This document shows positions 2,921-61,787 of a stretch of DNA of 64,000 bases, piece after piece. The notes beneath the pieces are model-generated. The model searched no databases. It was given only the letters and a program-made list of their open reading frames with translations, and was not told where the DNA came from. Source of the DNA: Deltaproteobacteria bacterium (lineage in GTDB: Bacteria > Desulfobacterota > Desulfobaccia > Desulfobaccales > 0-14-0-80-60-11); the NCBI GenBank assembly GCA_016208235.1, contig JACQYN010000118.1:11891-75890 (forward strand), read 5' to 3'. The translations under genes were made by a program, and so were the position numbers. Within the stretch, counting starts at the first letter, position 1; every line of letters begins with the position of its first letter.

Positions 2921-5131
2921 ATGCCCAAAGAAACCACGGAAGTCACCCTCACCCTGGAAGGCATGCACTGCGCTTCCTGTGTGGCCCGGGTGGAAAGGGC
3001 CCTGAGCGGGGTGCCCGGGGTGGAGCAGGCCCTGGTCAACCTGGCCACCCGCCAGGCTAAGGTCAGGTACGACGCACAGCAGACCGCGGTGGAAAACTTG
3101 CAGGCCGTGGTCCATGATGCTGGCTATGAGGTTACCGGCTGGGCTCTGGAAGCCCCTCCACCCGTTTCTCCGGAGATCGAGGCCCAAAACCTTAAGCGCC
3201 GTTTTCTCCTGGCCCTGATCTTGAGCCTCCCCGTCTTTCTGGGGGCCATGGTGCCGCCTCTGCCGGGGTGGTTGGGCCTGAAGCCGGAGCCCCTGGCTTA
3301 TCTGCTCCTGATCTTCACCACCCCGGTGTTGTTCTATTCCGGCGCGCCTTTTTTCCGGGGCGCGCTGAGCGCAGCCCGCCACGCCGCGGCTAATATGGAT
3401 ACCCTGGTGGCCCTGGGGACCAGCGCCGCATACTTTTATTCCGCGTGGGTGACTTTTTGGCCCCAATCAGTGGTTGCTCCCGGCAAAAGCCCGGACCTCT
3501 ACTTCGACACCACGGCCATGATTATCACCTTCATCCTCCTGGGCCGCTGGCTGGAGGCCCGCACCCGGGGCCGGGCCTCCCAGGCCATCCGCCGCCTCTT
3601 CGCCCTGGCCCCGCCCAACGCCCGCATCCGCCGGGAAGGCCTGGAATTGGAGGTGCCCCTGGAGCAGGTGCTGGTGGGGGACTTGATGACCGTGCGCCCC
3701 GGAGAGAAGATCCCGGTGGACGGGGTGGTGGTGGAGGGCGCGTCCAGCGTGGACGAATCCATGCTCACCGGGGAGAGCGTGCCGGTGGCCAAGGAACCGG
3801 GCGCCGAAGTCTGGGGGGCCACCCTCAACCAGCGAGGGTTTCTGGTCTTTAAGGCCACCCGGGTGGGCCGGGACATGGTGCTCTCGCAGATCATCCGCCT
3901 GGTGGAAGAGGCCCAGACCAGTAAGGCCCCCATTGAACGCCTGGTGGACCGGGTGGCGGGGATTTTCGTCCCTGTGGTCATGGGCCTGGCCGGCCTCACC
4001 TTCCTGGGTTGGCTGGTCTGGGGCCCGGCCCCGGCTCTCACCCCGGCCCTGGTCAGCATGGTGGCGGTCCTTATCATCGCCTGCCCCTGCGCCATGGGCC
4101 TGGCCACCCCCACCGCGGTGATGGTGGGCTCCGGCCGGGGCGCGGAAATGGGCATCCTGCTGCGGGGCGGCGAACCCCTGGAGCGGGCCTACCGCCTCAC
4201 CGCGGTGGTCTTCGACAAGACCGGCACCCTCACTCAAGGCCGCCCCCAGGTCACGGACATCCTGGCCTGGGAAGGCTGGCCTGAAGACCAGGTCCTGGCC
4301 TGGGCCGCGGCCGTGGAAGAAAAATCGGAACATCCCCTGGCGGAGGCTGTAACCCACGCCGCGGCCCACCGGCAACTACCGCTGCCGCTGGTGGCGGAGT
4401 TTCAGGCCATTCCGGGGCTGGGAGTCAAGGCTAGAATTGAAGGGCAGGAAGTACTCCTGGGCAATCTCACCTTCCTTAATCGGGAAAATATTCTGGTTCA
4501 GGCCCTCACCCCCCACCAGGAGCGCTTGGCCCAGGAAGGCAAAACCACCATCTTCCTGGTGGCCGGGGGTAAACCGGTGGGGCTGCTGGCCGCCGCGGAT
4601 ACCCTGAAACCGGGAGCCAAGGCGGCTGTGGCCGCGATCCAGGCCATGAATCTGAAAGTTGTCCTCCTCAGCGGCGACAACCGCCTGGCCGTGGAGGCTG
4701 CAGCCCGCACCGTGGGCATCTCCGAAGTGCTGGCGGAAGTCCTTCCCGGGGACAAGGCCCGCAAGGTCGCAGAATTGCAAGCTGCCGGGGAGACCGTGGC
4801 CATGGTGGGAGACGGCATTAACGACGCCCCGGCCCTGGCCCAGGCCGATGTGGGCATAGCCCTGGGCACCGGCGCGGACGTGGCCGCGGAAGCCGCGGAC
4901 CTGACCCTCATCCGGGACGACCTGACCCTCATCCCTCAGGCCATTCACCTCTCCCGGAAAATGATGCGCATCATCCGCCAGAACCTCTTTTGGGCCTTCT
5001 GTTACAACGTGGTGGCCATCCCCGCGGCTTCCCTGGGGCTGCTCAACCCGGCCATCGCCGCCGCGGCCATGGCGATGAGTTCGGTGAGCGTGGTTACAAA
5101 TTCCCTGCGCCTCCGGCGTTTTCGAGGGTAG
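2921..5131 (+). CDS. copA: copper-translocating P1B-type ATPase
   Basis: N-terminal HMA motif [11 protein letters not shown] motif ([13 protein letters not shown]), DKTGTLT phosphorylation site, GDGINDAP hinge. 736 aa. Confidence 0.95.
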
Positions 5132-5137
5132 ACTTTT

Positions 5138-5219
5138 TGGTGGGGCGGGCCTCTGTGCCCGCCCAAATTAAGAGAGGCAATCAGGCAATTTTTGGCGGGC
5201 ACGGAGGCCCGCCCCACCA
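5138..5219. repeat. 82-bp palindrome of the GGCGGGC...GCCCGCC family
   Basis: TGGTGGGGCGGGCCTCTGTGCCCGCC ... GGCGGGCACGGAGGCCCGCCCCACCA, 7 nt after the copA stop. Related hairpins at 6509-6532, 11033-11100, 13848-13868, 25455-25478, 40245-40269 and 57811-57836. Confidence 0.9.
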
Positions 5220-6490: not shown

Positions 6491-6650
6491 CCTGCGGGGG
6501 CAAGGGCCGTGGGGCGGGCCTCCGGGCCCGCCGGCGCCAACTTGGCCCCCCCGCTCATTTCCTGTCGCCCTTCCCGGTTTGAATCTCTCGCATCAATGAT
6601 TAACGTTCAATAACTGGGGAAAATAATCTTATACCAGGTGCCATGCAAGA

Positions 6651-8827: not shown

Positions 8828-8842
8828 AGCCCCTCCTTAGGA

Positions 8843-8900
8843 CGGTTTTCAGTTTTCGGTTTTCGGTTTTCGGTTATAAATATATCGAATAATCGTATGG
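8843..8900. repeat. (GTTTTCG)n array plus ATCGA-box flank in the glgA leader
   Basis: acggttttcagttttcggttttcggttttcggtt ataaatatatcgaataatcg. Inverted relative to 7329-7361. Confidence 0.9.
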
Positions 8901-10868: not shown

Positions 10869-11309
10869 TTTCTCCGTTCGCTCAGCATGGTTTTGCAGAT
10901 TATAATCGAAAAATCTTAGAGAGAAACTATTTTCAATGCAAGACGGGGTGAGAAGAAGTTGAAGTTTCTTAAATTGTTCTAGAAAAATGGTCGGATAAAA
11001 AGAATTAGTGAGGTTAGAGGACAGGGTCTAAAGGCGGGCGCGGAGGCCCGCCCCACTATCAAAAGGAAATGTATTGGTGGGGCGGCCATCCCTGGCCGCC
11101 TCCAAGAGTTCCTGGGAAAAAGGATTTACTTCACGTTCCCCAGCTTTGCTTGGGAACCAGAAGAATGTGGAACAGCCGCCCCCGGCTGTAATCGGGCAGG
11201 CGAGGGCGCCTGCTCCACATCCTGGTCCTCATCATACAAGCCTCTTTTTTATGAGGTCTCGCACCGGGTAATTTTGATAGAATGGGGCGAATCGGCTTAA
11301 GGGGGCGGA

Positions 11310-12050: not shown

Positions 12051-12063
12051 AAATGAATATTTT

Positions 12064-12140
12064 TCTCACGCAAAGACGCAAAGGCGCTAAAGATTTAATA
12101 TAATTATTGCGTCTTTGGGCCTTTGCGTCTTTGCGTGAGA
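12064..12140. repeat. hairpin with 8-nt periodic arms (CGCAAAGA)n
   Basis: tctcacgcaaagacgcaaaggcgc ... gcgtctttgggcctttgcgtctttgcgtgaga, between the S-component stop and the ATPase ORF. Confidence 0.9.
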
Positions 12141-12159
12141 ATTCAACGGAGAACCTACA

Positions 12160-13882: not shown

Positions 13883-14044
13883 GTTCCAAGTTCCCAGTTC
13901 CGTGTTCCAAGTTGAGACTTCTGCGAAAGTCTTTTAAGGTGTCATTCTGAACGGAGCGAAGCTTCGTTTCGAATCTCGTATTTGAGATTCTTCGGTCGCT
14001 TCGCTCCCTCAGAATGACAATTGATGAAGTTTCGCAGAAGTCTC
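13883..14044. repeat. composite nested palindrome, copy I-a
   Basis: GTTCCAA-type 7-mer array (13883-13913), GAGACTTCTGCGAAAG (13914-29) paired with TTTCGCAGAAGTCTC (14030-44), and the core GTCATTCTGA...TCAGAATGAC palindrome (13941-14018). Confidence 0.9.
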
Positions 14045-14282
14045 AAGTTAGGAATTAGCCATCAGGAACTTTTAATAATTTGCGGTAGGCCAACGGCCCA
14101 TGAATAATTGATCTGAAAAGTTGTACCCCGCACAGGCTGGAAAGCCTGTGCTACCGATACTTTTTATGGTTTATGGGTGAGCCTAAGGTCCATGAGGACC
14201 TGCCTTGATTTTTGATTTTTAAGCTGATGGCTGAAAGCTATTCGCCTTCTTTTTCATGGACCTTGACCGAACGGAGGCATCT

Positions 14283-15089
14283 ATGTGGGTAGCCGCAATT
14301 CAACTCAATTCCACCCCGGATATGGAGGGGAACCTGACTCGCGCCCGGTCCTTGATCGAGGAGGCCGCGTCCCGGGGCGCGCAGCTTATCGCCCTGCCGG
14401 AGCATTTTGCGTATCTGGGGCCGGAAGACAAAAAGCCGCCGTCCGCCCAGGCACTGGATGGGCCTCTGCTGAGTGAATTTCGGGAACTGGCCAGAAAATT
14501 GGGGGTCTTCCTGCTCCTCGGCTCCTTCCCGGAGCTTACCGCGGCCGGGGCCCGCCCCTTTAACACCAGCGTGCTCCTGGGACCCCAGGGAGACATTCTC
14601 GCGTCCTACCGCAAGATGCACCTCTTCGACGTGGATCTCGCCAAAGGGCCAAGATACCGGGAATCTCAATTTATTCAGGCCGGAGAAGAATTGGCCGTGG
14701 CCCCCCTTCCCGGCGCCCCCTTCACCGCGGGTCTGGCCATCTGCTACGACCTGCGCTTCCCGGAGCTTTTTCGGGCCCTGACGGCCCAAGGCGCGGATCT
14801 TCTGCTGTTGCCCGCGGCCTTCACCCTGGCCACCGGCCGGGACCACTGGGAGGTCCTGGTCCGGGCCCGAGCCATCGAAAACCTGGCTTACGTCATCGCC
14901 CCGGCCCAATGGGGCCAGCACTCCCCGGGCCGCCGCAGCTACGGCCGCTCCCTCATCATCGACCCCTGGGGCCTCATCCTGGCCCAGGCCCCGGACGGAG
15001 AAGGCATCATTTACGCCCGCCTGGACCACGATCGTTTGAACAGGCTGCGCCGGGAACTGCCTTGTTTGCACCATCGCCGATTGAAGTAA
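14283..15089 (+). CDS. carbon-nitrogen hydrolase (nitrilase/Nit family)
   Basis: Start at ATG 14283, after GGAGG at 14272-14276. Typical Nit pattern IALPE (catalytic Glu), YRKMHLFD (Lys), LAICYDLRFPE (Cys). Confidence 0.85.
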   Translation: MWVAAIQLNSTPDMEGNLTRARSLIEEAASRGAQLIALPEHFAYLGPEDKKPPSAQALDGPLLSEFRELARKLGVFLLLGSFPELTAAGARPFNTSVLLGPQGDILASYRKMHLFDVDLAKGPRYRESQFIQAGEELAVAPLPGAPFTAGLAICYDLRFPELFRALTAQGADLLLLPAAFTLATGRDHWEVLVRARAIENLAYVIAPAQWGQHSPGRRSYGRSLIIDPWGLILAQAPDGEGIIYARLDHDRLNRLRRELPCLHHRRLK

Positions 15090-15102: not shown

Positions 15103-15373
15103 AGCTGTCAGCTATCAGCTATCAGCTGTCAGCTGTCAGCTTAATTGAAGAACTATTAGAGATTGGAGCTAAATCGAGTTCAGCTGAAGTTTTGGGGTCT
15201 GCCTTAATTTTTGATTTTATACCAAGTCGCAAACAAAAAACGCAGTATCGTAGGGGCGCACCCGTGTGTGCGCCCGAGTCCGGGGCGGACACATGGGTCC
15301 GCCCCTACAAGAAAATTGTCTTTTGTTTGCGACTTGGTATTAAAGCTGATGGCTGAAAGCTGATAGCTGAAAG
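15103..15373. repeat. composite nested palindrome, type II
   Basis: Outer (CAGCTRT)n arms at 15103-15141 / 15344-15373, enclosing the element at 15219-15340. Confidence 0.9.
15219..15340. mobile_element. 122-bp MITE-like palindromic insertion (ATACCAAG...CTTGGTAT)
   Basis: 20-bp perfect terminal inverted repeats (ataccaagtcgcaaacaaaa / ttttgtttgcgacttggtat) around a GTAGGGGCG...CGCCCCTAC double hairpin. An uninterrupted version of the flanks exists at 14201-14240. Confidence 0.65.
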
Positions 15374-15462: not shown

Positions 15463-15816
15463 TTACCGGGACGTGGCTTTGGCCAGTTTTTCCCGAAGAG
15501 ACTGGCAGTTGCGGCACAAGGGGGTTTCGGGCATGATTTCCAGCCGCCGCGGCTCAATGGGCAGCCCGCAGTTTTCACATTGGCCGTAGCTGCCGTTTTC
15601 CAGCCTTTGCAGGGCTTCTTCGATGGCCTCCAGCTCCTGCCGTTTGGGTCCCAGAAGGGAGAGCTGGGTCTCCGCCAGGAGGCTGACCGAGGCCTGATCT
15701 TCCTCGTCCCGGGCGGTGGCCAGCATCTCCTGATAGCCGTCGCCGATACTGCTCTTCAGCTGTTGTTTCACTTCCAGCCAGAGGCGCTGTTTCCGGGACA
15801 GCAGCCGTTCTTTCAC
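15463..15816 (-). CDS. DksA/TraR-family C4 zinc-finger protein
   Basis: 117 aa. C-terminal CENCGLPIEPRRLEIMPETPLCRNC four-Cys finger after a coiled-coil region. GTG start overlaps the sigma stop (GTGA). Confidence 0.85.
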   Translation of the reverse strand: MKERLLSRKQRLWLEVKQQLKSSIGDGYQEMLATARDEEDQASVSLLAETQLSLLGPKRQELEAIEEALQRLENGSYGQCENCGLPIEPRRLEIMPETPLCRNCQSLREKLAKATSR

Positions 15817-20502: not shown

Positions 20503-20575
20503 TCTCACGCAAAGACGCAAAGACACAAAGAAAATAAATGCTTTGCGCCTTTGCGCCTTGGCGTCTTTGCGTGAG
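20503..20575. repeat. hairpin with 8-nt periodic arms (CGCAAAGA)n, second copy
   Basis: tctcacgcaaagacgcaaagacacaaag ... ctttgcgcctttgcgccttggcgtctttgcgtgag. Abuts the aconitase stop (20576-78) and lies 19 nt before the ALDH start. Confidence 0.9.
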
Positions 20576-22538: not shown

Positions 22539-22725
22539 AGTGGTCAGTGGCCAGTGGTCAGTTAGAGAGCTCTGAAAAAGTCTTGTCTGTCATCCTGAGC
22601 GAAGCGAAAGATCTCGTATTTGAGAGATTCTTCGGTCGCTCCGCTCCCTCAGAATGACATAAAAGACCAATTTTACAGAGGTCTCAGTCTTTTTTCTGGC
22701 CACTGGCCACTGACCACTGACCACT
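22539..22725. repeat. composite nested palindrome, copy I-b
   Basis: (CAGTGGY)n arms at 22539-22562 / 22696-22725, degenerate GAGAGCTCTGAAAAAG layer, and core GTCATCCTGA...TCAGAATGAC (22589-22658). The right arm overlaps the 3' end of CDS 22684..25395. Confidence 0.9.
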
Positions 22726-25395: not shown

Positions 25396-25481
25396 AATTC
25401 CTTGGTGGCACAGGCTTCCAGCCTGTGCATGTAGGTTTTGCACCGTTACACCTATAAGGCGGGCGATGCCCGCCCTACCTA

Positions 25482-26454: not shown

Positions 26455-26568
26455 TTCCCCCTCCCTTGAGGGGAGGGGGTTAGGGGGAGGGTGGTGGCGA
26501 CTATGGGCAACAAGGGTTCAAAGACGCCACCCCCTCCCTAACCCTCCCCCCTCAAGGGGGAGGGAAAA
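26455..26568. repeat. 114-bp GC-rich palindrome (CCCCTCCC-TTGA-GGGGAGGG ... GGTGGCG / CGCCACC ...)
   Basis: Arms at 26455-26500 and 26523-26568. The right arm differs from the DUF559-cassette terminal repeat at 1 of 40 positions by hand alignment. Confidence 0.9.
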
Positions 26569-40098: not shown

Positions 40099-40335
40099 CA
40101 CCGCCCCCGGCCTGTGGGTGGCCGCCGGGCGTTGGGTAACGAGGGGGACCTTAACTTGCTTGCTGGTAGGTTACTGACGCCCAACCTAATCTTCACCCTT
40201 CCCGGGGAAGGGCAGGACCCGCCCTTCCCCAGGAAGATAGGCATCATAGGGCGGCCCGTGGCCGCCACCAGGAGGCGTGCCCGGTACCCCCTGGTGTACT
40301 ATCCTCAGGATTATCTTACCTAAGTTTTAAGGTCT

Positions 40336-40444
40336 TTACTCCCTCCCCCTTGATGGGGGAGGGCTGGGGTGGGGGTGAAATTTCTGGCAACTGCGCCCGC
40401 TTATCCCCCTCCCCCCAACCCCCTCCCACCAGGGGAGGGGGAGT
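40336..40444. repeat. diverged copy of the GC-rich palindrome family, inside the mraY-murD spacer
   Basis: ttactccctcccccttgatgggggagggctggggtgggggtgaaa ... tccccctccccccaaccccctcccaccaggggagggggagt. The same variant arm occurs at 57011-57055. Confidence 0.85.
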
Positions 40445-43029: not shown

Positions 43030-43153
43030 CCAGTGGTCAGTGGCCAGTGATCAGTTTTTAGTTTTCGGTTTTGGGTTTTGGGTTTTGGGTTTTATCTTAC
43101 AAGGATTAAATGCCTATACTTACCTAATCACTGGCCACTGACCACTGACCACT
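43030..43153. repeat. (CAGTGGY)n inverted arms enclosing a (GTTTTSG)n array, ftsW-murG spacer
   Basis: ccagtggtcagtggccagtgatcagt (43030-55), tttttagttttcggttttgggttttgggttttgggtttt (43056-94), tcactggccactgaccactgaccact (43129-53). Confidence 0.9.
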
Positions 43154-44277: not shown

Positions 44278-44353
44278 GGAGGGCACGGCCCGCAGATAAT
44301 GCGTGGCTGCATCACCTTTTGAAAGGCTGGGAACTGTTTGGAACGTACAAACC

Positions 44354-44900
44354 TACGCCACCCCCACCCTAACCCTCCCCCCTCAAGGGGGAGGGGATAG
44401 ATCGCTGGATTTTTGGGGGGTTAGTAGATATGCATGACCTTGTCAGTCTTTCCAGAAATCTGAGAAAAAATCAGACTGATGCGGAAAATCTATTATGGCG
44501 GCATCTGCGGGGAAAACAATTAGAAGGATTGAGATTTAGGAGGCAACACCCCATCGGACGATACATTGTGGATTTCGTATGTCTCGAAAAACGATTGGTT
44601 CTGGAAATTGACGGCGGCCAGCATGGGATGGAAAAAGAAAAGATTAAAGATGATGAACGGGATCATTGGTTAAGGACGGAAGGTTACCAGGTATTAAGAT
44701 TTTGGAATAACGACGTCTTAACAAACCTGGAAGGCGTCATGGAAACGATACGATTAACTGCCCTCCCTAATTCTAACTGATAGATAAAGGGGCCATAAAA
44801 AAGAAAACTGCCAATAAAAGAAATGCCCCATAATACCACAGATGTCTTTGCTTTTATCCCCTCCCCCTTGAGGGGGGAGGGTTAGGGTGGGGGTGGCGTA
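44354..44900. mobile_element. 547-bp cassette: DUF559 gene bounded by ~46-bp perfect inverted repeats of the GC-rich palindrome family
   Basis: Left TACGCCACCCCCACCCTAACCCTCCCCCCTCAAGGGGGAGGGGATA (44354-44399) equals the reverse complement of 44855-44900 by hand comparison. The interior is low GC. Confidence 0.7.
44430..44780 (+). CDS. DUF559 (Vsr-like endonuclease fold) protein
   Basis: 116 aa, low GC. LRKNQTDAENLLWRHLR..FRRQHPIGRYIVDF..LVLEIDGGQH..D..RD.WL...GY.VLRFWNNDV matches the DUF559 pattern. Confidence 0.85.
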   Translation: MHDLVSLSRNLRKNQTDAENLLWRHLRGKQLEGLRFRRQHPIGRYIVDFVCLEKRLVLEIDGGQHGMEKEKIKDDERDHWLRTEGYQVLRFWNNDVLTNLEGVMETIRLTALPNSN

Positions 44901-48932: not shown

Positions 48933-49416
48933 TTTTCAGAAAAGTGGCTAACCTCAATTACTCAGCAACAATTGCTTGAAATCGGCTTAACTATAGGCCC
49001 AAAACCATAATCTAAAATTTAAAGAATTTCATTTTAGATTTCAGCAGATAGCTTTTTTTGCACTCTTTTTTTCTGGACCCCTATGAAAATCGATGTTATT
49101 TCCAGGAAACGGGAGATTGGCCACAGACCAGGCGCTTTTCCCCCCACATGGCCCAGAGCCGGGGATAACTTACTTTAACTAATCGTTAAATTAATTTAAT
49201 CATTATGTCTGTAAAATTTCTGAAAACGTCAACGTTGGAGGGCTTCAAGGGAGCCCCGGGGCAGAGCCGGGGTAATCTAAATTTGGCTTCACCCCCTTTG
49301 ACCGGGCTGGAGGGGGGAGGCTAATATATTCCTAACTAGAATGCGCGTCGTGCCCTTCCCGTATGGCCTTGTCCGCGGGGAAATGCCCGGTAATATGCTG
49401 CAAGGGGGTGGTGGGT

Positions 49417-50619
49417 ATGAAAATACAATTAGTCACCAATGAATTATCGGCTAAAATCAAGGTGTTAGGAGTCGGCGGAGCCGGCGGCAATGCCATCAAC
49501 GACATGATCGCCTCCCAGATGGCGGGGGTGGATTTCATGGCCGCCAATACCGATTCCCAGGCCCTGGAACGCAGCCTGGCCTCGGTTAAAATCCATTTGG
49601 GTCCCACGGTGACCCGGGGGTTGGGAGCCGGAGGCGATCCGGAGATGGGCCGCAATGCCACCCTGGAGGAAAGCGAACGCATTAAGCAGGTCCTCCAAGG
49701 CGCGGACATGGTGTTCATTGCCGCGGGCATGGGCGGCGGCACCGGCACCGGCGGGGCGCCGGTGATCGCCGAACTCAGCCGGGAGTTGGGCGCGCTCACC
49801 GTGGCGGTGGTGAGCAAGCCCTTCGACTTCGAAGGCAAGATGAAAAAACGTCTGGCCGATTCCGGCATCGAAGAGCTGCGCAAGGTGGTGGACACCATCA
49901 TCACCATCCCCAACGATCAGCTCTTCAAACTGAGTTCCAAAAACTCCCGCATCAAAGACGTCTTCGCCATGGCCAACGAAGTTCTGGGCTTTGCCGTGCG
50001 GGGCATCTCCGATCTGATCATGGTGCCCGGCTTCGTCAACCTGGACTTCGCGGACGTGCGCACCATCATGCGGGAACGGGGTATGGCCCTCATGGGCACC
50101 GGCATCTCCGGCGGCGCCAACCGCGCCTGCGAGGCCGCCCAGAAAGCCATCTCCAGCCCTCTGCTGGAGGACATCTCCATCCGAGGGGCCCGGGGGATTC
50201 TCATCAACATCACCTCCACCCCGGACATCTCCATGGACGAACTGAAGGAAATTTGCGGCATCATCCAGGAAGAAGCGGACGAAGAAGCCATCATCAAATG
50301 GGGCCTGGTTTACGACGAGAGCCTGGCCGAAGAGATCCGGGTCACAGTCATCGCCACCGGTCTGGGCAAGCGCGCAGAAGCTGAAAGAGTCATCTGGTCC
50401 CCGCCGGTCACTACCCAGGCCGAGATGGAAGACCTGGAAATTCCCACCATCCTACGGAAACCCACGGAAATGCAGGGCATGGCCGCGGAAGGGCACCAGC
50501 CTGGAAGGCCTTCCCCCAACCTGGGGGTGGTGGCCGCCAAGAAGTACATCGTTCATCCCGACCTCCAATACGAGGAAAACGAACTGGACACCCCTCCTTT
50601 TTTGAGAAGGGCTGATTAA
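49417..50619 (+). CDS. ftsZ: cell division GTPase FtsZ
   Basis: Start trimmed to ATG 49417. GVGGAGGNAIN, tubulin signature GGGTGTGGAPVIA, NDQL, and C-terminal conserved peptide DTPPFLRR. Confidence 0.95.
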   Translation: MKIQLVTNELSAKIKVLGVGGAGGNAINDMIASQMAGVDFMAANTDSQALERSLASVKIHLGPTVTRGLGAGGDPEMGRNATLEESERIKQVLQGADMVFIAAGMGGGTGTGGAPVIAELSRELGALTVAVVSKPFDFEGKMKKRLADSGIEELRKVVDTIITIPNDQLFKLSSKNSRIKDVFAMANEVLGFAVRGISDLIMVPGFVNLDFADVRTIMRERGMALMGTGISGGANRACEAAQKAISSPLLEDISIRGARGILINITSTPDISMDELKEICGIIQEEADEEAIIKWGLVYDESLAEEIRVTVIATGLGKRAEAERVIWSPPVTTQAEMEDLEIPTILRKPTEMQGMAAEGHQPGRPSPNLGVVAAKKYIVHPDLQYEENELDTPPFLRRAD

Positions 50620-50622
50620 AAT

Positions 50623-50648
50623 ACGGTTTTCAGTTTTCGGTTTTCGGT
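50623..50648. repeat. (GTTTTCG)n array abutting the ftsZ stop
   Basis: gattaaaat-acggttttcagttttcggttttcggt. The ftsZ TAA lies inside the conserved TTAAAATAC flank. Confidence 0.9.
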
Positions 50649-50649
50649 G

Positions 50650-50682
50650 GGGGCGTGATTTTGTCACGCCCCTTGCTTTTTT
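50650..50682 (+). terminator. rho-independent terminator after ftsZ
   Basis: GGGGCGTGA-TTTTG-TCACGCCCC stem-loop followed by TTGCTTTTTT. Confidence 0.75.
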
Positions 50683-50720
50683 AAGGCAAATCATTAAGTT
50701 ACAATATCAAACTATTGCTT

Positions 50721-50830
50721 ATACCAAGAAATTGTAGGGGCGGACCCGCGTGTCCGCCCTTGGGTGGGCGCACACACATGGGTGCGCCCCTACAACAGAT
50801 AATTCTAGTTTTTTGACGGCAACTTGGTAT
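50721..50830. mobile_element. second copy of the ATACCAAG...CTTGGTAT element, flanked by a 19-bp direct repeat
   Basis: Core tgtaggggcggacccgcgtgtccgccc..gggcgcacacacatgggtgcgcccctaca. Flanks tacaatatcaaactattgc (50700-18) and tacaatatcaaactactgc (50831-49). Confidence 0.6.
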
Positions 50831-51044
50831 TACAATATCAAACTACTGCCAGTTAGGAGGTTGCGCCCTGCGCACCAGTTAAGTTGCCGACTTTTCATAA
50901 TTTAAGGGTGAGTCGAAGGCTCATGTTCAAATGCTTGGGCAAAATGGATGCGCGTGGCATAATAAATAATGGAATTGTGGGGACGGTTTAAAACCGCCCC
51001 TCTTTGGTTCGCAAATCGCAGGATTATCCTCAAAAAGCTATTCC

Positions 51045-52795: not shown

Positions 52796-53176
52796 GTGGG
52801 GGAGGGGGCTAAGGGCCGGTAGCACAGGCGTCTCGCCTGTGGACCTTAGCCCCCTTCCCCTATACCCGCCACAGGCGCTAACTTAAACAATATTTGTCAT
52901 TCTGAACGGAGCGAAGCGGAGTGAAGAATCTCTAATTTTCCTACGAAATGAGAGATTCTTCGCTGCGCTCAGAATGACAAAAAGCCTTATGTTAACGCTT
53001 ATGCCCACACCCCCTCCCCCAATCCCATAAGCTTTGGTGGCACAGGCTTCCAGCCTGTGCGGTCAACTCGCTGGGTCTCCTATCTCATGCTGATTTACCT
53101 GCAAACGACATGTTCTGTAGGGGCGAACCTTGTGTTCGCCCACGATTCCCCAGGCGAACACAAGGTTCGCCCCTAC
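52796..53176. repeat. cluster of at least four different palindrome families in one spacer
   Basis: 52796-52858 (GGGGAGGGGGCTAAGG..CACAGGCG..), 52896-52978 (GTCATTCTGA core), 53038-53060 (CACAGGC hairpin), 53118-53176 (GTAGGGGCGAAC...GTTCGCCCCTAC). Confidence 0.9.
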
Positions 53177-56954: not shown

Positions 56955-57168
56955 TTAAAAAACCTGGCAAGGGGTTGGGGGAGGGGGATAATTGGCGCTG
57001 TTCCCAAAAATTTCACCCCCACCCCAGCCCTCCCCCCTCAAGGGGGAGGGAGTAAGTGCCTTAAAACTAAATAAATTTACTCCAGTGGCGGCACACGGTA
57101 ATAGGCAACTGATAGGGACCGACAGAGAATATGTGTTTCCGGGAAAAGTTGGAGTACCGCTGCCGCCA

Positions 57169-57674: not shown

Positions 57675-57810
57675 AAATAAATAAGATTGTCAAAAGAAAT
57701 GAGAAGTACCGGGGCGGAACCCGTAGGCCTATTATAAGCACGGCCAAGGACAGGGGCCAGGGGTCGGGGTCCCTTTTATCCGGCTGGTGGCGGTAGGGGT
57801 ATGATCTAAA

Positions 57811-57930
57811 GGCGGGCACGGAGGCCCGCCCCACCATATATGTAGGGGGTTAGGGGAGGGAGTCTGAGGGAGTGGGCAGGGGCCGGTAGCCACAGGCGTC
57901 CCGCCTGTGGTTTCCCTGGCCCCCTCCCTC
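57811..57930. repeat. adjacent palindromes (GGCGGGC family, GGGAGGG/CACAGGCG nested family)
   Basis: ggcgggcacggaggcccgcc, then tgtagggggttaggggagggagtctgagggagtgggcaggggccggtagccacaggcgtcccgcctgtggtttccctggccccctccctc. Confidence 0.85.
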
Positions 57931-61448: not shown

Positions 61449-61787
61449 AAGCTGTCAGCTATCATCTGTCAGCTTAAAAGAATATGGAGTTTGATTGTAA
61501 ATTGAGACCTCTGCGAAAGCCTACTCAGCTGTCATTCTGAGGGAGCGGAGCGACCGAAGAATCTCGTTTTTGGCAGTACAGCTTTTCCAGATGGTGCCGA
61601 TGATTCCACCCAGATTGGAAATCCTGGGCGCTAAAATACGAGATTCTTCACTCCGCTTCGCTCCGTTCAGAATGACATTTTAAAGACTTTCGCAGAGGTC
61701 TCAAATTGAGATAAACCAGGATTCCGATCTTAATTTCAAATCTTGCTTTAAAAAAAGCTGAAAGCTGACTGCTGAAAGCTGTAAGCT
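61449..61787. repeat. composite nested palindrome, copy I-c (largest)
   Basis: (CAGCTRT)n arms 61449-61475 / 61755-61787. GAGACCTCTGCGAAAG 61504-19 pairs with CTTTCGCAGAGGTCTC 61687-702. The core GTCATTCTGA...CAGAATGAC at 61531-61676 has an enlarged loop. Confidence 0.9.

Follow-up and report, generated by a model that had tools for sequence, protein, structure and literature searches.

Bacterial insertion sequences (ISs) of the IS630 family classically duplicate the dinucleotide TA at their target, RUP, a short repeat of pneumococci, has been linked to IS630-Spn1, and the BIMEs of E. coli are made of two REP types (Y and Z REPs). The TA duplication is equally classical for the wider IS630-Tc1-mariner group, in which Fot elements of the pogo superfamily generate TAA duplications (PMC7386202), and RUP of Streptococcus pneumoniae is listed among the MITEs (PMC3733652). 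GTAG REPs are defined as GC-rich stem-loops of 20-40 bp, one end of which bears an unpaired GTAG tag (Di Nocera et al. 2013, PMC3733652), and the same study has described GTAG-15 REP dimers of Anabaena variabilis that are embedded in long palindromes of the type TATAGGA..TCCTATA, of which no shells devoid of REPs were found.

A palindrome in the window, by which we refer to the whole stretch of 64,000 nucleotides that was analysed, is a genuine discrete insertion and a non-coding miniature transposon (MITE; Table 1). It displays terminal inverted repeats (TIRs) that are shared with ISs, a flanking duplication, a small size without transposase gene, and empty sites. The perfect 20-bp inverted ends proposed in a first-pass annotation are found as ATACCAAGTCGCAAACAAAA, which occurs exactly twice in the window (15219-15238 on the plus and 15321-15340 on the minus strand; chance expectation 0.01), with the repeats being perfect over 19-20 nt and 93% identical over 27 nt. 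The discrete insertion assigned by the same annotation to 122 bp at 15219-15340 withstood scrutiny as an insertion, but not in its boundaries. Removal of these 122 bp leaves filled and empty sites that align only with a 1-nt gap, whereas after removal of 120 bp together with one TTA the filled site aligns to positions 14200-14239 at 38/40 without gaps, and the unit was thus corrected to 120 bp flanked by a TTA duplication. As single-stranded DNA, the element has a folding energy of -49.2 kcal/mol (z = -12.9).

Table 1. Position of the element, its parts, its surroundings and related copies within the window.
Feature	Position	Strand	Basis or remark
MITE proper, 120 bp, TACCAAG...CTTGGTA	15220-15339	.	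gapless alignment with empty site and family-wide flanks
Target-site duplication TTA, left copy	15217-15219	.	
Target-site duplication TTA, right copy	15340-15342	.	
Left terminal inverted repeat TACCAAGTCGCAAACAAAA	15220-15238	+	perfect complement of 15321-15339
Right terminal inverted repeat	15321-15339	-	inverted-repeat search
REP hairpin 1, GTAG-headed, 'CAC' type GTAGGGGCGCACCCGTGTGTGCGCCC	15250-15275	+	
REP hairpin 2, inverted, 'GAC' type, plus strand reads GGGCGGACACATGGGTCCGCCCCTAC	15283-15308	-	
Heptamer array (CAGCTRT)n, outer left arm of nested palindrome	15103-15141	+	
Heptamer array (AGCTGAW)n, outer right arm	15344-15373	+	element immediately 5'
Empty site, paralogous, unbroken host motif of about 40 nt CTGCCTTGATTTTTGATTTTTAAGCTGATGGCTGAAAGCT	14200-14239	+	38/40 gapless to reconstructed pre-insertion site
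Host motif, filled copy (left 15199-15219, right 15340-15361)	15199-15361	+	flank searches and alignment
Second family copy, 108 bp, left arm internally deleted	50722-50829	.	TTA/TTA at 50719-50721 and 50830-50832
Third copy, decayed: AAC+AAC REP doublet (53117-53176), left-arm remnant, no right arm	53090-53176	.	

The empty copy, previously placed at 14201-14240, is indeed uninterrupted, with both flanks being contiguous at 14200-14239. It is a paralogue, a second copy of an intergenic motif of about 40 nt, and no allele of the filled site, and it fixes the ends of the element and the 3-bp length of the duplication. The triplet in this copy reads TTT where TTA was predicted. An allelic counterpart was sought with the unique left flank, which returned no matches in metagenome contigs, and the CN-hydrolase protein encoded beside the element is, with either start codon, not on record. 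The allelic pre-insertion site at 15.2 kb is predicted to read ...TGATTTTAAAGCTGATGG.

The element belongs to a larger family. A scan of species-representative genomes with the pattern ATACCAAG-N(0-30)-GTAGGGGCG returned at least 117 loci, which are chiefly chance matches and include at least about 30 true relatives. All of these relatives reside in metagenome-assembled genomes (MAGs) labelled as Desulfobaccales, Syntrophobacterales, Thermodesulfobacteriota or 'delta proteobacterium'. Further repeats of the window are shared with these MAGs, so that the window probably stems from the same Desulfobaccales/Syntrophobacterales-type lineage. With the family-consensus end TACCAAGTTGCCGTCAAA, a scan of metagenomes contributed another 120 loci, and both scans together provided 133 TIR-bounded elements, 118 of them unique, with lengths between 95 and 197 bp and a mode at 114 bp. 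In 74 of the 118 unique copies, the three nucleotides outside TACCAAG and CTTGGTA are identical on both sides (TAA in 27, TTA in 24, TCA in 14, TGA in 8 and CTA in 1), compared to 0-4 matches in shifted registers used as control. Of the 95 copies with TNA on both sides, 73 have the same middle base left and right, with about 30% expected from base frequencies. Since position -4 is a C in 58/118 and position +4 a G in 59/118 copies, the preferred target appears to be C|TNA|G with a duplication of 3 bp. The duplication for which the first-pass annotation had advised to look is found as TTA/TTA at the window copy and as TNA across the family.

Elements located at L037 7584-7700 and L074 6435-6550 (Scytonema MAG; L numbers are our labels for the sequences collected) share ends of the type TACCAAGAGCGAAAAAAG...TTTTTGAAATTGGTA, a single GTAG REP as core and TTA/TTA flanks, which suggests that the TACCAAG-type end motif and its duplication may extend to cyanobacteria. 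Other long TIR pairs (708-4964 bp) that were considered as ISs turned out to be chance pairs or separate copies. The same holds for a pair in L065 with ends 1115 bp apart (4028-5142), which consists of two MITE copies that bracket genes for a PIN-domain toxin and its antitoxin (4318-4994), an arrangement that may represent a composite mobile unit or have come about by coincidence.

Two further copies are found in the window. The second one contains a GAC+CAC REP doublet (50734-50793) and lies between the two copies of a 20-nt direct repeat, TTACAATATCAAACTAYTGC (19/20 identical; 50699-50718 and 50830-50849), whose right copy starts with the TTA duplication. Either the element has entered a pre-existing tandem-repeat junction or an unusually long duplication has arisen with it. 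The only contig among those searched that matches the window identically, L001 (a Logan contig of SRR12113402 of 1.5 kb bearing FtsZ), corresponds to positions 49276-50761 and stops inside the REP doublet of this second copy, which illustrates that these repeats break short-read assemblies.

The mobility of the family is reflected in additional pairs of filled and empty sites, which were obtained by rebuilding the pre-insertion sites of 112 copies and searching them against all sequence collected. In an orthologous pair, L102 2651-3404 aligns to L123 1105-352 with 91% identity over 754 nt, and on the other side L102 3505-3601 aligns to L123 354-258. A 100-bp element is located between the two alignments, which overlap by exactly 3 nt, TGA. 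Paralogous pairs include L210, where an element with CTA flanks resides inside a GTCATTCTGA palindrome, L124, with TAA flanks and an uninterrupted counterpart in the window at about 52883-52941, and L167/L228, with TTA flanks. Every junction of these pairs is gapless under the 3-bp model. A classical IS630 model, with TA duplication and CCAAG ends, was considered and rejected, since the five additional bases that it predicts are missing from the empty sites; the flanking TNA triplets are direct repeats and not palindromic. As far as can be judged from sequence comparison, both the orthologous and the paralogous pairs confirm that the family is mobile and has often inserted into other repeats. 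Hence, the earlier proposal that one repeat family has inserted into another, also carried by the empty copy with its 38 matching positions, and that nesting results from successive insertion holds, and the nested palindromes of these intergenic regions arise in this way at least in part.

A potential source of the mobilizing enzyme was found in autonomous ISs with equivalent ends. At L223 920-2045, two overlapping reading frames are located between TIRs that are 1126 bp apart, the first frame matching HTH_33 (Pfam, 1.9e-15) and HTH_29, the second DDE_3 (Pfam, 1.9e-20) and the NCBIfam model transpos_IS630 (117.6 bits at a cut-off of 100). Five full-length copies of 1124-1129 bp with ends TACCAAGTTGCA..TC were identified, four of them on contigs of four transposase homologues, and TTA/TTA duplications flank all five at different sites. 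More than 7000 homologues of the transposase were recovered at E <= 1e-20, and contigs of about 1.1 kb harbor many of them. Over the terminal 12 nucleotides, the ends of the window copy and the partner ISs agree at 11 positions, and over the terminal 22 at 15, the latter being the nearest correspondence among the ISs found, none of which matches the window TIR TACCAAGTCGCAAACAAAA exactly. With a DDE_3 domain preceded by an N-terminal HTH and a TIR-bounded length in the range of about 1.0-1.4 kb, these sequences conform to the IS630 family, whereas their duplication comprises 3 bp (TNA) instead of the 2-bp TA. By our own count, the catalytic triad of the L223 transposase has 31 residues between its second D and its E. 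The two frames of this transposase overlap at GAGTTTAAAAAAACTG (1455-1470), an A7 run also present in homologous ISs, with the downstream frame being +1 relative to the upstream one, and removal of one A from this run joins ...AEFKK to LPQIVEQEE... in a full-length protein. A fusion protein is thus the probable product, arising from either slippage during transcription or +1 frameshifting.

Whereas the first-pass annotation had suggested a search for genes of the IS200/IS605, IS110/IS1111 or RAYT type, the matching ends belong to these IS630-family DDE ISs. A derivation from IS200/IS605 elements, which have neither TIRs nor duplications and insert 3' of a fixed tetra- or pentanucleotide, was rejected in view of the TIRs and TNA duplication present here. 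The statement that the window contains no transposase is consistent with our searches, as none was detected by Pfam on 59 open reading frames (best 25 of 80 families) and on 20 open reading frames scanned singly, and as tblastn gave no match in the window for either the partner transposase or a RAYT query.

The center of the element consists, in line with the double-hairpin core described initially, of two 26-nt GTAG..CTAC stem-loops in inverted orientation separated by a 7-nt spacer, whose GTAGGGGCG heads at 15250 (plus strand) and 15300-15308 (minus strand) face outward. As GC-rich stem-loops with an unpaired GTAG tag arranged as inverted dimer, they show the features of GTAG REPs. Six such heads, forming three doublets, are found in the 64-kb window compared to 0.62 expected. 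The 12 doublets that belong to the two commonest types invariably combine unlike partners (CAC+GAC in 9/9 and TGA+CAA in 3/3), with each hairpin retaining its own compensated stem. Among copies chosen by their TIRs alone, 70 of 90 contain the motif GTAGGGG or CCCCTAC; in the remainder, the same arms enclose GTCATTCTGA...TCAGAATGAC, GTAGCCGCAGGC or GTGGCACAGGC hairpins. Since the same arms thus surround different palindromic cores, the center appears to act as an exchangeable module, and the GTAG double hairpin would most plausibly represent cargo that the element carries. Independent movement of the REP doublet was not seen; the only apparently naked doublet of the window (the third copy), which had been taken as a sign of the core moving alone, retains a remnant of the left arm, and this interpretation is weakened.

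Several related structures were noted in passing. A second MITE-like shell with arms (A)AGTTGAGACYTCTGCGAAAG surrounds the GTCATTCTGA...TCAGAATGAC palindrome in the window at 13909-14049, 61499-61707 and about 22565-22682, and in L133, L146, L153 and L171 the same palindrome is enclosed by the TACCAAG shell as its core. Hairpin families with heads of the GTGG type comprise GGTGGGGCGGGCC...GGCCCGCCCCACC doublets and GGTGGCACAGGCTTCCAGCCTGTGC (5138-5219, 6506-6532, 11027-11100, 57805-57837; 14127-14153, 25402-25428, 53034-53060), with the GGTGGCACAGGCTTCCAGCCTGTGC hairpin also serving as core inside TACCAAG shells at L102 3405-3504 and L118 5610-5750. On the 1.7-kb contig L230, positions 2-232 encode the C-terminal portion of a RAYT, a REP-associated tyrosine transposase (NCBIfam REP_Tyr_transpos, 8.5e-16; no match of this fragment in Pfam), which is followed after 35 nt by a CTAC-tailed hairpin GGCGGGATGCGCTTTGCTTTCCCGCCCTAC, and the contig also carries a TACCAAG MITE, indicating that RAYTs exist in these communities.

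The described features find their best explanation in mobilization in trans by an IS630-family DDE transposase that makes a 3-nt staggered cut at TNA, a mechanism that we consider highly probable. It builds on the observed ends, the target-site duplication, the repeat family, the partner ISs with the same ends and duplication, and the pairs of filled and empty sites; that this very copy was moved by the IS630 enzyme class is what we infer. The element would consist of two arms of about 20-30 nt, homologous to the ends of a 1.12-kb IS630-family IS, and the two REP hairpins as central cargo. A transposase with HTH and DDE_3 domains, supplied in trans, would have bound both arms, excised the element and inserted it at a TTA within the AT-rich stretch that leads into an (AGCTGAW)n array, and repair of the 3-nt staggered cut would have doubled this triplet. 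In an alternative scenario, the whole unit would be a REPIN-type element, moved by a RAYT (Y1/HUH) enzyme acting on the GTAG hairpins, with the ATACCAAG arms being only part of a longer hairpin or a preferred target palindrome. The core with its GTAG/CTAC tags indeed has the inverted-dimer layout that defines GTAG REPs, the GTAG dimers in the longer palindromes of Anabaena variabilis have been interpreted as REPs inserted into target palindromes (PMC3733652), and the truncated RAYT of L230, with the CTAC-tailed hairpin behind it, shares its contig with a member of the MITE family. However, HUH/Y1 transposition proceeds without target duplication, yet identical TNA triplets flank 74 of the 118 unique copies outside the arms, and these arms match the ends of DDE ISs with the same duplication, surround quite different cores and reside in a window that contains no RAYT. 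We thus regard this scenario as very improbable and, with respect to the shell, as largely refuted. Even less probable is a Tourist-like MITE of the IS5/PIF-Harbinger superfamily, an origin that was initially inferred from the duplication, since 3-bp TWA/TNA duplications are a hallmark of PIF/Harbinger and NuwaII elements and C|TNA|G is the target described for NuwaII (PMC4482050). It was dropped as the ISs that share ends and duplication with the family encode transposases of the DDE_3/IS630 type and not of the DDE_Tnp_1/4 type.

Other alternatives concern the relationship between the two host sites rather than the enzyme. The empty copy could be secondary: it would once have contained the element and have lost it, through precise excision or a deletion between the TTA repeats, and the pair would record no insertion. 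The direction of the event is not derivable from sequence alone, and the two copies differ in the involved triplet itself (TTT versus TTA). However, the empty copy contains neither a footprint nor extra bases, as opposed to what the first-pass annotation had named as sign of a deletion derivative, and it is embedded in the history of a family with many insertions at unrelated sites, fresh TNA duplications and one orthologous empty site, which makes such a loss unlikely. Even if it had occurred, the element would still be a discrete mobile unit with the same boundaries. That the likeness of the flanks would be a chance product of low-complexity heptamer arrays, without homologous empty site, appears by comparison practically negligible. 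Although (AGCTGAN)n arrays are frequent in the window and in related genomes, the left part of the motif, TGCCTTRATTTTTGATTTT, comprises 21 nt outside the array and is found in the window only at 14201 and 15200 (0.04 expected), and its exact 18-nt right part AGCTGATGGCTGAAAGCT only at 14222 and 15344. Every other array has at least two mismatches and lacks the left part, and the break coincides exactly with the ends of the TIRs. Insertion of the element by an IS630-type enzyme into a pre-existing copy of the host motif thus remains our preferred reading.

In its genomic context, the element is contained in a 373-bp spacer between two convergent genes, one for a CN-hydrolase (14283-15089) and the other for a zinc-finger protein of the dksA/traR type (15463-15816, minus strand). 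The (AGCTGAW)n array on its right pairs with the (CAGCTRT)n array on its left, so that the whole spacer is foldable as a nested hairpin with three levels, formed by the arrays, the MITE arms and the REP doublet, with a folding energy as RNA of -159 kcal/mol (z = -12.6). Rfam and tRNA scans of the window gave no matches. Heptamer arrays frame intergenic regions as inverted pairs of the types CAGCTRT/AGCTGAW, CGGTTTT/AAAACCG, AGTGGYC/GRCCACT, GCAAAGA/TCTTTGC and CCCCTGR. They are located at 14222-14239, 15103-15141, 15344-15373, 61450-61474 and 61755-61787, with further arrays at 7132-7163/7321-7364, 8836-8881, 22539-22725, 43031-43153, 12063-12141 and 20504-20575, and they recur in related MAGs. 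Arrays of the AGCTGAN type often stop 30-45 nt short of a ribosome-binding site with its start codon. Examples in the window are the ATG codons at 14283 and about 61808, and further ones are found in L165, L166 and L219. Another repeat family, based on a CCCTCCCCCTTGAGGGGGGAGGG palindrome, is found at 26455-26566, 40335-40377, 44350-44401, 44853-44895 and 57005-57056 and is common to L006 and L039.

The variety of cores encountered in the TACCAAG shell, which includes GTAG REP singlets, heterotypic REP doublets, GTCATTCTGA palindromes and GTGG/GTAGCC hairpins, and the presence of at least one such core in a second, different TIR shell, raise the question whether REP hairpins are passengers of DDE-type MITEs, in which case the RAYT-only view of their spread would need a supplement. 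As a tentative proposal, which we consider possible although rather doubtful, IS630-type arms might serve as a general vehicle for small palindromic modules, with REPs being captured by, or homing into, the centers of MITEs and being spread by the DDE transposase, and there might exist an IS630 clade with a 3-nt stagger at C|TNA|G. If true, REPs could multiply without a RAYT of their own by a second route of dissemination, and the vehicle role of the arms might explain the deep nested palindromes that fill the intergenic DNA of Desulfobaccales-like genomes. For annotation, our analysis provides exact ends, the target C|TNA|G and a putative partner enzyme for repeats that abound in uncultured lineages of the sulfate-reducer type.

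Collectively, the family is new within the well-known class of IS630-derived bacterial MITEs, and it is itself largely ordinary. Like other members of this class, such as RUP, it comprises non-coding intergenic elements of about 100-130 bp that strongly form hairpins and carry TIRs matching IS630 ends, consistent with mobilization in trans. It departs from the textbook IS630 MITE in two respects. One is its 3-bp duplication of TNA at the target C|TNA|G instead of TA; IS630 members with TNA duplications were not found in the literature searched, with ISfinder being outside that search. The other is its modular palindromic cargo, which includes GTAG REP doublets and whose cassette-like center differs by subfamily (single or double GTAG REPs, the GTCATTCTGA palindrome, GTGG/GTAGCC hairpins). 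The closest description of such cargo concerns the GTAG-15 repeats of Anabaena, where a GTAG REP dimer is equally central in a longer conserved palindromic shell. That shell was treated as target palindrome without naming a transposase or a duplication (PMC3733652), whereas the shell of the window family is tied to IS630-family ISs and a TNA duplication. With REPINs and the REP doublets associated with RAYTs (Bertels and Rainey 2011, PMC3116915), the core shares two inverted GC-rich hairpins with GTAG/CTAC tags, and with the BIMEs of E. coli the combination of unlike hairpins in a doublet (here CAC+GAC and TGA+CAA). In contrast to REPINs, the doublet is enclosed by DDE-type TIRs and a target duplication, and the window contains no RAYT. 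The 3-bp T-N-A duplication is shared with Tourist/PIF-Harbinger elements and the target C|TNA|G with NuwaII (PMC4482050), and Fot elements (PMC7386202) illustrate that relatives within the IS630-Tc1-mariner group are able to make 3-bp duplications. However, PIF-Harbinger, NuwaII and Fot are eukaryotic, whereas the partner of the family described here is a bacterial DDE_3 protein of the IS630 family.
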